The position numbers and the translations under genes were made by a program. A stretch of 64,000 bases of DNA from Clostridia bacterium (GTDB taxonomy: Bacteria; Bacillota; Clostridia; UMGS1883; UMGS1540), in contig JAZSIR010000001.1 in the NCBI GenBank assembly GCA_045533905.1, positions 32,001-96,000 of the forward strand, given 5' to 3'. Each line of letters begins with the position of its first letter. Within the stretch, counting starts at the first letter, position 1. This document shows, in pieces, positions 1 to 4,820 of this stretch. The notes under the pieces are model-generated. The model was not told the DNA's origin. It worked only from the letters and a program-made list of their open reading frames with translations, and made no database searches.

Positions 1-2
1 TG

Positions 3-3000
3 TCTTTGCACGTGAATGTAATCCCCAGGCGCGTCAATCCCAAAACTTTCAAAGGTGCTTTTAACAAACTCGTCCGAATAGTTGCTCTCACGCCTCGCGG
101 GGACGCTTTCAACCGCTTTTATATAGTCGGAGTCTTTGAGAGAAAAATCACTCTTGACAATTTTTTGGGGGTGTGATATATTATCCCTAGAGTAGTTCTC
201 TTTAACGTCTTGGACGTACGCCTTGCGGATTTCATGCAAATCAGCGAGATATTGAGAACTACTCTGTTTTTTATGTATAGCATCAATCAAGCCATACAGG
301 TTTGGAATACTATCTATCCCCGTTTTTACCATTTGCTTGTTAATAAGAAGTTTTTCTCTGTTATATTCCGTTGTTATTGCTTCGACATAATAAATCACAT
401 CACCCGGCATTACTTTTACATAAATCAAACCCGGATCACCATTTGCGTTTGTTTTGTAAAATACTTTATCGTAATTTTCAACAATATACGGAATTAGCTC
501 AACATCTGCTTCGGTAACAGGGTATTTTTCATTTGTTTTTTTGCCGTGGGAGTTCTTGATATGCCGAATATCATTATCGCGCAACGCATGAGAATAACCC
601 GATATATCCACATCAGAAGATACTTCATTTATCAAATCCCTTCCAACCTTTAGGAATTTAATGTAAGATTTTTCATTATCGTTTAGATAGGCTTTTTCTA
701 TGTACCGGTTGATGTCAGATTGCGTAACCTCAAAATCAAACACTTTATCCGCATATCCTAATGTCTTCAAGGAAAAGTCCACACCGCCCTCTGGAGCGGT
801 GTTCTTTTGTCCGTCTATTCTCTTGAGTGAATAGCTCTTTTCTTCCGATTCTCTGAAGAGATTTTCGAGGACATTTCTAAAAGCTCGGCTTCCGTTGCGT
901 TGGGATTGTCTCGGCAAAACTCCAACATTTTGATTGTGTCTTCCGCCTCCCAGGTTTCGAAGATTATTTTGACTACTGTTGACATTTTGCAACCAACTTC
1001 CTTGAGATACCCTTTGAGCAAAACTTGGTTTTCCGTTAATACCCTTGCCATCTTCTTCGTCCTCCAATAAATCAATTAAAATATCTAATTCAAAGCTTCC
1101 GTCATCGCCTTTTCTTTCGTAGAGGATTGTAGGATGTTCTGGGGTTTCCGTGCTGTATATGGCAAACAAAGCTTCTCCGTCAATTCTGCCTTTATACCAA
1201 CATCCAACCGTATCTGCGATTCTTTTAGGTTCGTGATTCTCAACCTGCCGAATCCAGTCTTCCAGCATTTTGAACTGCGTTGCGTTCAAATCTGTGCGCC
1301 ATTTTAACGAATAGCTTGTATTTCCATTATACTCCGCTCCCATGTTTTTTTCAAGAGTATCGGAGGAATTCTCTTTTTTGAGAGAAATTTCATTCTTGAC
1401 AGAATTTGAATTTTGTGGTATATTGTCATTAGAAACACTATCCCGTGTAGCCTGTCTTTCGGCAGGCAATCTGGTCATTCTTTCGAGAAGACCAATCTCG
1501 GCGGTAGTGTTTTCTTCAATCCCAACAATATCGTATAGGTATTTGTTGCCATCAGAAGCATTCCTAATCAACAGCTCGACATCAAAAGCTCGTACCTTTG
1601 TTATCTTTCCTCGATTATCTTTTATCGGGAAAGCAAAGGAATTAGCATAACGATACATACCATACTTCGCATCCTTATTATGTGTGTGCTGCGTCTTTTC
1701 CCACCTGCGATTCGTAGCTGTTTCTATCAATTCTCCAAAGCCGTCAACAGCTTTATTTTTACCTCTTGCGGCGGTGCGATTAACCCTACGGAGAAAAGTG
1801 GTGTACTTCGAATGCGTGTACTCTTGCGGCAAATCCTCGCCAATGTAGACCTTCTGCCCACTTTCTATAATCGTATAAACTTCGCCTATATGTTGTGCAA
1901 TGTAGCCTGCAACAGCTTGATGGCTGTTTAATTGCTTGTTGGTCAGTCCACTTTCTTCAATCCATACAAAGCTCTTGCCATCAACATTTTTCAAGCTAAA
2001 GTCTACGCCGTCCTCTGTGTCGGTGTTTTTTTGTGCCTCTGCGGTCTGTTTAGTATGAGCCTTTGCTTCCACCGCCTTTTTGTTTTCCACAGCCTTTGCG
2101 ACAGCAGTCTCAAACATATCGCGAAGACTTGTGATTTCGTCAAGCTTTGGCTGAATCTTTGCTTTTTCTTTGGCGCTCTTGCCTGCAAGAAAATCACGAA
2201 TTTTCCTAATCATCTCGGCAAGATACTCAATGTACTTCCGCAAGCCTTGCTTTGCCTTTTCGTCCGTGCCGTTGATGATGCTGTCAATAGCCTTATGGAA
2301 TCGCGCCTCATCGTTGCCGTAAAGGTAGAGAATGTTGTTTGCAGAAACTTCTTCCATTGCCTTTGCAAGAGATATTTCCTCGCCCTGTGCGGCGTATGCA
2401 CTTCGTTTTTGGTCTGCAACGGTAAATATAGACGGCTCATTGCCGGCAATGTGATTATACATCGCATACACAAACGCGCTGCCTTCTTCAGGGGCAAGGT
2501 CGACAACTCTATGCAGCGCTATTTCGTGCGCCGCATGGAAGACAATAGATACCTTCTGCCCGCCCACTTCTCTTTCAAAATCGAAGTCAATAGGCACTTC
2601 CCCCGTTTGCCTGTTGTACTCGGCGTTGCCTTTTAGGCCCTTTGCCATATACGCCTTTACGCCAAGTCCTTCTGCTAAAAGATTGAGCGTTGCAACCTCG
2701 CTTTGTTTAACATCGCTCGGCAGGTTTTCCGCAAGAACGCCGCTTTCCATATTTACAACTGCATTTCTAAACCTTTCTTTGGCGGCGAGGTCTTCCATTT
2801 TTCTGTCCATCTGCCCTGCCGTGAACGCATCTTCTTGTGCTTTGGATATAAATACGTCCTTGCCTTTTTTAACATTCAAGTCCGGTTGCTTAAAGCCTGT
2901 CATGTACGATGCCTTGACCTCTTCCAGCACTTTGTTAAAGGTTGCCCCGTCTGCATTCGAATAATTGGCCACAAGTTTCGCCCCTTCCTCGCCAAACCCC

Positions 3001-3191
3001 GTGACCTTTCTTACCTCGTCGGCGGTTATCTCCACGCCGTTCTCGGTGAGGACATCTAGTGTTTCGCTGCTTACGATTCCTCTTCTGCGGTTTTCAAGAA
3101 GGGTGTAACCGTCTACTCGATTTTTTCTACCGCGCCCATTGCCTTCCTTATACGCAAAAAGGCTGTGAAACCTAGGTTTCACATCCTTTTC
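3..3191 (-). CDS. Large polyvalent protein (partial, runs off the left edge): zincin-like metallopeptidase + LPD3-like + small unknown domain + PBECR-like RNase
   Basis: Hand translation gives no stop from 3191 to base 3. Motifs: HEIALH (2511-2528) with downstream MEEVSAN; HNKDAKYGMYRY...LLIRNASDGNKYLYDIV (LPD3-like); DIRHIKNSHG...PVTEADVELIPYIVENYD (PBECR-like). Recurrent DFSLK/SYSLK/EISLK linkers. True start codon uncertain. Confidence 0.85.
154..182 (+). promoter_or_regulatory. sigma-A promoter antisense to the polyvalent gene
   Basis: TTGACA (154-159), 17-bp spacer, TATATT (177-182) with extended -10 TG. Confidence 0.75.
189..272 (+). ncRNA. Putative three-way-junction small RNA 1
   Basis: Starts 7 nt after the -10. 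12-bp closing stem AGAGTAGTTCTC (189-200)/GAGAACTACTCT (254-265), inner hairpins 205-217 and 222-248, then GTTTTTT. Confidence 0.65.
781..808 (+). terminator. Intrinsic terminator inside the polyvalent gene linker (antisense orientation)
   Basis: ACACCGC-8 nt-GCGGTGT followed by TCTTTT. Confidence 0.6.
815..1051 (-). CDS. Nested 78-aa protein in an alternate frame of the polyvalent gene (candidate antitoxin/immunity protein)
   Basis: GGAGG (1061-1065) 9 nt before ATG 1051; MARVLTENQVLLKGYLKEVGC...; protein-like helical sequence while the host frame here is linker-like. Confidence 0.7.
   Translation of the reverse strand: MARVLTENQVLLKGYLKEVGCKMSTVVKIIFETWEAEDTIKMLEFCRDNPNATEAELLEMSSKISSENRKKRAIHSRE
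1326..1354 (-). promoter_or_regulatory. Internal sigma-A promoter, sense to the polyvalent gene, upstream of the nested ORF
   Basis: Minus strand TTGAAA (1354-1349), 17-bp spacer, TATAAT (1331-1326). Confidence 0.7.
1396..1424 (+). promoter_or_regulatory. Second antisense sigma-A promoter
   Basis: TTGACA (1396-1401), 17-bp spacer, TATATT (1419-1424) with extended -10 TG. Confidence 0.75.
1431..1516 (+). ncRNA. Putative three-way-junction small RNA 2
   Basis: Starts 7 nt after the -10. Closing stem AAACACTATC (1433-1442)/GGTAGTGTTT (1503-1512), hairpin GCCTGTC-TTTC-GGCAGGC (1450-1467), UUCG-capped hairpin 1472-1494, U-rich tail. Confidence 0.65.
2005..2032 (+). terminator. Intrinsic terminator inside the polyvalent gene linker (antisense orientation)
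   Basis: ACGCCG-10 nt-CGGTGT followed by TTTTTT; homologous to 781-808. Confidence 0.6.
3156..3190 (-). terminator. Terminator after the acyl-CoA synthetase gene
   Basis: Inverted repeat AAAAGGcTGTGAAAC-CTAG-GTTTCACAtCCTTTT. Confidence 0.75.
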
Positions 3192-4820
3192 TTATTTCTC
3201 GATTTGCTTTTTTACGAGGCTTTCGCCGCAGTATTTTTCGCGGAGTTTCGGTTTTTCGATTTTGCCGGTGGGGTTGCGCGGTACATCGGCGAAGATGATG
3301 CGGCGCGGTCTTTTATATCGTGGAAGTGCCTGACAAAACGCTTCGATATCTGCTTCCGTGCAGGTGCTGCCGGGCTGCAGTTCGATAATGGCCGCGGCAA
3401 TCTCGCCGAGTCTGTCATCCGGAAGGCCGATAACGCCCACGTCCTTAATCTCGCGGTTTGTGCGGAGAAAATCTTCAATCTGCACAGGGTAGAGGTTTTC
3501 GCCGCCTGTGATGATAACGTCTTTTTTGCGGTCTACGAGGAAAATGAAGCCATCCGCATCTTCCATGGCCATATCGCCTGTGTAGAGCCAGCCGTCGTGC
3601 AGTACCGCATTTGTGGCCACCTCATCGCGATAATAGCATTTCATAACGCCGGGGCCTTTTACTGCAAGTTCCCCCACTTCGCCACGAGAAACGGTGCTTC
3701 CGTTTTCGTCAATAATCTTCGTTTCCCAAAGATGACCGGCAATACCGATGGCGCCCACCTTATGTATATTCTCTACGCCAAGATGTACACAGCCGGGGCC
3801 GATAGATTCGGAAAGCCCGTAATTGGTATCATATGCGTGATTCGGGAAACGCTCACGCCAGCGCTTTATAAGGCTCGGCGGTACCGGCTGTGCGCCGATA
3901 TGCATGAGCCGCCAAGAAGCAAGGTCATATTCTTCTATATTGACATCGCCGCGGTCAATCGCATCGAGAATATCCTGCGCCCACGGCACGAGAAGCCATA
4001 CGATAGATGCCTTTTCCTCGGAAGCGGCTTTTAAAATCCACTCCGGCTTTACGCCGCGAAGAAGCACTGCTTTGCCGCCGACCAGAAAGCTTCCGAACCA
4101 ATGCATCTTCGCGCCGGTATGATACAGCGGCGGAATGCAGAGGAACACATCGTCCTTCGTTTGCCCGTGGTGTTTATTTTCCGTAATGCACGAGGATATG
4201 AGGCTTCTGTGTGCATGCAAAATAGCCTTGGGGAAGCCTGTGGTGCCGGAAGAAAAGTAGATGGCCGCATCGTCCTCTTCCGAAAGCGGTGCATCCGTAA
4301 AGTCTGCACACATTTCGGGGAGGCGCCCGTTATAATCTACGGCAAAATCGGGTGTATCCTCACCCACAAAGATATATTGTTTCACGCCGGGCATATCGCC
4401 CTTGGCCGCGGTTACGCGTTCTGTAAACTCAGGGCCAAAGATCAAAACATCCACCTCAGCAAGACCCGAGCAATAGGAAATTTCATCTGCTGCATAGCGG
4501 AAATTCATAGGCACGGCCAGTGCGCCCGTTTTGAGAATACCAAAATAGATGGGAAGCCACTCGAGGCAGTTCATAAGAAGGATTGCAACCTTATCCCCCT
4601 TCTTGATGCCAAGCGCTGTGAGCATATTGGCAAAGCGGCAGGCGCTTTCGTCAAACTCGCGCCATGTGATTTCGCGGCGCCCTGCATTTTTTGCGGCCGC
4701 TTCCACTAGCTCAAAATCGCGCCAAGCCTGCTTTTCACGCACCTCGGGGCTGATTTCTACAAGCGCCGCACAGCTACCGTACTTCCTTGCATTTTCTCTT
4801 AAAACCTCAGTAATAACCAT
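3192..4820 (-). CDS. AMP-binding acyl-CoA synthetase (class I adenylate-forming enzyme)
   Basis: YFSSGTTGFPK, YGLSE, GWLYTGD and PRNPTGKI motifs. Confidence 0.93.
   Translation of the reverse strand: MVITEVLRENARKYGSCAALVEISPEVREKQAWRDFELVEAAAKNAGRREITWREFDESACRFANMLTALGIKKGDKVAILLMNCLEWLPIYFGILKTGALAVPMNFRYAADEISYCSGLAEVDVLIFGPEFTERVTAAKGDMPGVKQYIFVGEDTPDFAVDYNGRLPEMCADFTDAPLSEEDDAAIYFSSGTTGFPKAILHAHRSLISSCITENKHHGQTKDDVFLCIPPLYHTGAKMHWFGSFLVGGKAVLLRGVKPEWILKAASEEKASIVWLLVPWAQDILDAIDRGDVNIEEYDLASWRLMHIGAQPVPPSLIKRWRERFPNHAYDTNYGLSESIGPGCVHLGVENIHKVGAIGIAGHLWETKIIDENGSTVSRGEVGELAVKGPGVMKCYYRDEVATNAVLHDGWLYTGDMAMEDADGFIFLVDRKKDVIITGGENLYPVQIEDFLRTNREIKDVGVIGLPDDRLGEIAAAIIELQPGSTCTEADIEAFCQALPRYKRPRRIIFADVPRNPTGKIEKPKLREKYCGESLVKKQIEK

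Follow-up and report, generated by a model that had tools for sequence, protein, structure and literature searches.

Antisense structured RNAs at the ends of phage polyvalent-protein domains, and their protein-free arrays in bacterial chromosomes, as candidate RNA inhibitors

A fragment of a phage-type polyvalent-protein gene carries a predicted small RNA gene, RNA-1, on the strand opposite the tail of its PBECR3 domain. The window, the whole stretch of DNA analyzed here, comprises 64,000 nucleotides (positions 32001-96000 of contig C11 in genome G000). That RNA-1 is a conserved structured sRNA gene, with a predicted transcript, is strongly supported by covariation, by frozen synonymous sites, and by copies that persist protein-free. 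Beyond the original prediction made on this DNA, domains of the PBECR3, LPD3, and MuF-C families mostly carry their own family-specific RNA, and chromosomes keep such RNAs protein-free, often in arrays. Comparison of the sequences makes it somewhat probable that RNA-1 is a domain-specific inhibitor that binds the protein of its domain in the manner of a type III antitoxin and that hosts keep such RNAs as immunity arrays.

An RNA gene opposite the tail of a PBECR3 domain

The polyvalent-protein gene is a truncated fragment of 1365 codons on the minus strand (1..3182, continuing beyond the window start to C11:31085), in which no convincing start or ribosome-binding site was seen. The adjoining acyl-CoA ligase gene has its 3' end duplicated, with one copy on either side of the fragment (window 1-3232, C11:31085); three large ORFs that look recombinase-like by sequence (C11:26587-30680) adjoin it. 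In a congener (L002), a polyvalent fragment has an identical first residue and lies next to a gene resembling a tRNA. Four domains separated by short linkers make up the fragment: D3 is PBECR3, D4 is LPD3, and D1 and D2 are unclassified. The same genome has a second, full-length polyvalent gene of 3247 aa in a prophage-like region (C3:100249-109992, minus strand), with two antisense cassettes (105521 and 106427).

D3 with its tail (P0001; 150..773, minus strand) matches Pfam PF18812 (PBECR3) over residues 54-138 (E 7e-14; 52 bits against a cut-off of 30), giving a family to what had been described as a PBECR-like domain adjoining the RNA. The predicted BECR core spans approximately residues 59-153. 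In the AlphaFold model (pLDDT 84) this core precedes the RNA-1 stretch, and the part encoded by the promoter is disordered; the RNA-encoded tail (residues 172-191) is a confident helix, which suggests that the peptide of the overlapped tail may matter too. The nearest folds are the CdiA tRNase 5i4q (Z 5.0, rmsd 3.6, 88 residues aligned), BrnT 3u97 (Z 4.8, rmsd 3.3, 75 aligned), and colicin D (in the Z 4-5 range), all of them weak at Z under 8; Foldseek returned no significant match to the D3 model. The canonical PBECR pair is described as a His within the N-terminal helix together with a C-terminal Ser/Thr (Iyer et al. 2017, PMC5512222). His70 of D3 is conserved, and the Ser/Thr of distant homologues aligns to Gln147. 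With Gln at this position, RNase activity, the predicted function of the domain, is not assured for the D3 subfamily.

The D2/D3 linker holds an intrinsic-terminator-like hairpin (781..812, plus strand) that would stop antisense read-through, and a weaker look-alike lies before D1 (about 2004-2030, plus strand). Several homologous proteins have a similar linker peptide ahead of PBECR3. In several PBECR3 homologues (P0011, P0014, and P0018), the frame terminates or slips precisely where an A-run forms the U-tract of the RNA; broken genes, slippage, or natural solo toxins are possible.

RNA-1 overlaps residues 169-195 of the D3 tail, and the minus-strand frame over its promoter reads NISHPQKIVK, as originally stated. 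The promoter (154..182, plus strand) is of the sigma70 type with an extended -10: TTGACA (154-159), a 17-nt spacer, TG (174-175), and TATATT (177-182), matching 11 of 12 consensus positions. Both boxes are kept in homologues, and the spacer is variable. The predicted +1, A189, is the seventh base past the -10 box and the first base of stem P1, exactly where the original prediction had placed it. The RNA (189..272, plus strand; predicted length ~80-84 nt) is recognized by its fold, by covariation, and by synonymous constraint. MFE and centroid structures agree on a three-way junction comprising P1 (189-200/254-265, 12 Watson-Crick pairs), P2 (205-209/213-217), and P3 (222-232/238-248, one bulge per side); G266 and six U (267-272) complete the 3' end. 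The perfect closing stem, two inner hairpins, and U-tract claimed earlier are thus all recovered, with a folding energy of -30.5 kcal/mol (z -5.35; 0 of 200 shuffles equally stable). A single-stranded seed is almost absent, as the ends are locked in P1 and the open loops are only 3-5 nt. The opposite strand folds too (z -5.25), so folding alone does not settle the orientation. The plus strand is indicated by the promoter, by the U-tract, and by G-U pairs, which would read A-C in the other direction.

The RNA had also been likened to a tRNA. Its size fits; the likeness goes no further, ARAGORN finding 0 tRNA genes in L001, L013, L016, and L034 and neither it nor Rfam recognizing a tRNA cloverleaf with consensus loops. 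The proposed Rfam search for a known family gave no match, with nothing relevant at the RNA-1 locus or in the arrays described below. P2 was considered as an anticodon-loop mimic; loop size and bases fit inconsistently, and the idea is left as speculation. In a genome-wide control, 540 promoter-like sites in G000 were reduced to 21 by a closing-stem and U-tract filter and to seven by a folding energy of -30 kcal/mol or lower. Five of these seven strongest candidates are antisense in polyvalent genes, the other two being a sequence that resembles a tRNA and an ordinary terminator hairpin.

Covariation among homologues had been set beforehand as a test. We aligned 27 copies (23 of 31 motif matches plus four added by hand; five near-duplicates and three divergent matches were left out) and scored them against the structure taken from the window's own fold: 91.9% of cells pair, and 19 of the 27 pairs are two-sided. 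None of 500 shuffles reaches the observed value, slid controls give 35-42%, and RNAalifold independently predicts the same helices. The P2 core and the junction bases are invariant; the apex of P3 varies in sequence and length. Constraint is also evident in the codons. Among eight close copies, synonymous variation at codons for invariant residues occurs at 13 of 14 just upstream versus 3 of 18 under RNA-1 (Fisher p 4e-5, which is overstated, the copies being kin). In a comparison with a congener, 44 of the 168 codons of the domain differ synonymously and 23 by replacement, against 0 and 1 of 27 for the RNA-1 stretch.

Sister cassettes, domain families, and protein-free arrays

An antisense promoter with a closing-stem RNA lies at the end of D1, of D3, and of D4, the sequence differing each time, and every predicted +1 is an A. 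Opposite the tail of D1 (domain and tail 1392..1991, minus strand; weak LPD3 resemblance in two of seven homologues), a sequence scan finds an extended -10 promoter (1396..1424, plus strand) followed by RNA-2 (1431..1518, plus strand; z -5.72), a second three-way-junction cassette from a different sequence family, for which 20 of 30 pairs are two-sided in five sequences; the family covaries in viral contigs. RNA-3, of another family again, lies behind D4 (C11:31515-31625, plus strand). Each RNA goes with a domain and not with an mRNA: the window's gene has three cassettes and the C3 gene two. We infer that LPD3 and D1 are BECR-fold nucleases; structure comparisons did not tie either fold to BECR.

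D2, a small unclassified domain (834..1316, minus strand), holds a nested gene in its tail instead of an RNA. This out-of-frame ORF of 78 aa (815..1051, minus strand) has a GGAGG ribosome-binding site and is a candidate protein immunity gene for D2. It has 14 homologues, is conserved together with its start Met in L002 (79%) and L023 (48%), and lies in a stretch of the D2 tail that is conserved in both frames. An orphan homologue (L009 2896-3108) stands beside the RNA array of L009. A near-consensus sense promoter (11/12; 1326-1354, minus strand) just before D2 could drive the nested gene.

The association with particular domains was examined in 23 long polyvalent ORFs, within 120 codons around the ends of 40 Pfam domains, two of which are cut by the end of the locus. 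An antisense cassette lies behind 16 of 21 PBECR3, 5 of 5 LPD3, and 1 of 1 MuF_C domains, counts that are not independent because the loci are kin and were gathered by PBECR3/D3 similarity. At domain ends, the same filter finds no cassette for the single PBECR1 and the single PBECR5 domain and none for nine ART, LPD23, RadC, ParB, and DUF6782/peptidase domains; on the sense strand it passes none, and among 300 host ORF windows it passes 2. One of the five PBECR3 domains that fail it, in L021, matches the RNA model. Extra RNA-only cassettes occur in frame in four polyvalent genes (L006, L008, L010, and L031). In the cultured Burkholderia phage phiE058, a promoter, a closing stem, and two hairpins can be made out by eye in a portal-PBECR3 tail, which model R1 leaves unscored; in the polyvalent gene of Helicobacter phage DeM53M no cassette was seen. 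Searching viral contigs with P0001 alone gave no match, and the exact core pattern gave 0; an alignment-based search found 10 viral loci, of other subtypes.

RNA-1 is present in 15 of 15 GTDB loci found with D3, a count that is partly circular because L009-L016 matched through the tail itself. Stops or frameshifts interrupt the old frame in L012-L016, and similarity does not extend past the U-tract; these copies lie between housekeeping genes, single or in tandem with other promoter-stem-U-tract units. A strict filter passes eight units in L016, six in L013, and three each in L012 and L009, so that arrays reach eight or more. Further protein-free copies, in G022, G013, and G009, came from a model search that, across the order, detected the RNA in at least 6 of 87 genomes (50 candidates scored per genome). 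Seven of the 10 genomes with protein-free copies have no PBECR3 match, most of these assemblies being incomplete and one rated 100% complete. Thirteen protein-free copies, with L009 and L011 among them retaining a domain stub, keep the fold and the promoter (90.6% paired); their compensatory changes may be inherited from embedded ancestors. Orphan copies consist of the folded unit only, and the flanking complementarity is gone.

Compared with a small embedded set, 17 of the 33 non-embedded cassettes have a match at z >=3.5, and the remaining 16 have none. Array RNAs match RNAs embedded at MuF_C (z 9.9) and LPD3 (z 13) domains and at a further two phage domains (z 48 and 27), and one is almost identical to a viral contig copy. 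The arrays L013:412-1378 and L016:2896-4416 (both minus strand) contain many further cassette families without a cognate domain in the set examined. Two array families recur in two hosts each (L012-3148 with L013-685; L013-579 with L016-4198). The L013 array retains a 306-codon open frame; together with the stubs in L009 and L011, this points to an origin in decayed genes and suggests that arrays form by deletion of the domain DNA between cassettes.

Candidate roles of the RNAs

The original prediction had left the role between an inhibitor or decoy and an antisense repressor. Comparative evidence favors an inhibitor or antitoxin, as a predicted function, and is less kind to the repressor. An inhibitor of this kind would be made constitutively, fold, and bind its cognate domain via the invariant P2 hairpin and junction bases. 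Such binding would shield a producing cell or lysogen against a nuclease whose packaging and injection are predicted, the packaging of polyvalent proteins into virions having itself been put forward as a prediction (Iyer et al. 2017, PMC5512222). Because the RNA gene occupies the opposite strand and the frame is kept open, domain and antidote would travel together when polyvalent genes shuffle their domains. Bacteria may then retain the cassettes after the intervening domain DNA has been deleted, and the resulting RNA immunity arrays would blunt incoming phage effectors. A protein-binding inhibitor explains why there is one RNA per domain, why junction bases are invariant and stems free to vary, and why no seed is exposed; it also accounts for retention in domain-free genomes, for mixed arrays, and for a protein gene in the D2 slot. 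Direct binding has precedent in RCd22, which neutralizes AbiF in cis and in trans (bioRxiv 10.1101/2025.04.15.648962). The most general form of this proposal is put forward tentatively: phage polyvalent effectors may hide one antisense RNA inhibitor per nuclease domain, which gut bacteria hoard as an acquired RNA immunity against virion-injected nucleases, an equivalent in RNA of the orphan-immunity clusters discussed below.

The main rival is a type I-like antisense repressor that pairs with the polyvalent mRNA to cause decay or a translation block, host copies then silencing the phage gene in trans. RNA-1 is perfectly complementary to its own mRNA in cis (duplex -156 kcal/mol vs folds of -30.5 and -28), its promoter is convergent at the 3' end of the domain, and orphan copies are close in sequence to the phage copies. 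A single such RNA would nevertheless be enough to silence the entire mRNA, and every domain carries one. The RNA exposes no seed, variation is greatest in the loop that is most accessible, and the orphans have dropped the flanking complementarity, keeping only the folded unit. The terminator-like hairpin in the linker would, moreover, cut antisense read-through, and no action would be possible on a protein delivered by the virion. We regard repression as unlikely.

The strict pairing of domain and RNA and the invariant junction bases would also suit a ribonucleoprotein cofactor, in which the two form an active complex with the RNA as scaffold, substrate mimic, or adaptor. The catalytic pair is incomplete in the Gln-substituted D3 subfamily, which may only bind RNA, and RNA binding has been predicted for inactive PBECR domains (Iyer et al. 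2017, PMC5512222). Hosts, however, retain the RNAs in the absence of any domain, a variable guide segment was not seen, and the D2 slot is filled by a protein gene, so that this role appears quite improbable. Slightly less credible again is a DNA-level or neutral origin, with the stems acting as recombination, pausing, or termination signals in domain shuffling and the chromosomal copies being prophage remnants or selfish mini-cassettes that stop convergent host transcription. P1 is indeed a strand-symmetric inverted repeat with both strands able to fold, and the domain stubs and the open frame in the L013 array would be expected of remnants. Against this, near-consensus promoters are retained in every unit, always equally far from the stem, while the domain DNA is lost; the G-U pairs are one-sided in favor of the plus strand, and the families are domain specific, not a single recombination site common to all.

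As many as 26% of polyvalent proteins contain PBECR domains (Iyer et al. 2017, PMC5512222). If the RNAs inhibit them, the RNA antitoxins would acquire a large and diverse class directed at BECR-fold nucleases, and otherwise toxic domains would become clonable and testable. The conserved low-complexity tails behind the domains would be explained as overlapping RNA genes, and hosts would possess a counter-defense layer consisting of small RNAs only, missed by gene callers and Rfam.

Comparison with known systems

Embedded RNA partners of phage effector domains, together with host-side arrays, apparently constitute an undescribed system. A literature search, with subscription papers and supplements mostly outside its reach, returned no description of embedded RNAs of this kind; candidates may be present, unnamed, in bulk ncRNA catalogs. 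The window's gene belongs to the polyvalent proteins of Iyer et al. 2017 (PMC5512222), with the same PBECR3 and LPD3 architecture; the main text of that study contains neither "antisense" nor "small RNA", and neither an associated RNA nor a PBECR antidote was found in it. The accessible text of a BECR classification preprint (10.64898/2026.08.28.747851) likewise lacks "non-coding" and "polyvalent" and reports no associated RNA. The Minerva preprint (10.64898/2026.09.22.753630) was considered as a prior description and set aside, its accessible part concerning UG27 RT arrays.

Type I toxin-antitoxin systems of the TxpA/RatA kind have a convergent promoter and an RNA complementary to the message of the toxin, a small membrane peptide. 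RNA-1 resembles them in its complementarity to the domain mRNA and its convergent promoter. It differs in that its partner is not a small membrane peptide and in that it sits in the middle of the CDS, has a stem of its own to close it, and recurs from domain to domain.

MuF polymorphic toxins (PMC5576092) also place a phage-borne toxin domain before its antidote, and gut bacteria are described as collecting toxin-free arrays of antidotes in the orphan-immunity AID and polyimmunity clusters (bioRxiv 10.1101/471110). The antidotes in those reports are proteins in downstream ORFs; the ones proposed here are RNAs, by prediction, and a single nested protein read out of frame. Arrays without cognate toxins in the locus, a defining feature of AID clusters, are found at L012-L016; their units are RNA-like rather than encoding immunity proteins.

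In the type III systems ToxIN, CptIN, and TenpIN, tandem pseudoknotted antitoxin repeats lie upstream of the toxin in one operon with a terminator between (PMC12283969). The likeness is in a predicted endoribonuclease coupled to a structured RNA that probably neutralizes it by binding. RNA-1, by contrast, is single, downstream, on the opposite strand, under its own promoter, and inside a coding frame, and its partner is a domain of a polyvalent protein. Its covariation is explained by a nested three-way junction, with no match to an Rfam antitoxin family. Pfam assigns D3 to PBECR3 and to no ToxN family, its nearest folds being BECR RNases, if weakly so.

The closest known counterpart is AbiF/RCd22, in which a prophage RNase toxin is neutralized by one structured ncRNA (bioRxiv 10.1101/2025.04.15.648962). 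AbiF is described there as an abortive-infection protein linked to Cas13 ancestors; in the system presented here, the RNA has as its partner a PBECR3 domain of the BECR fold, in whose gene it is embedded in antisense, and orphan copies form arrays.
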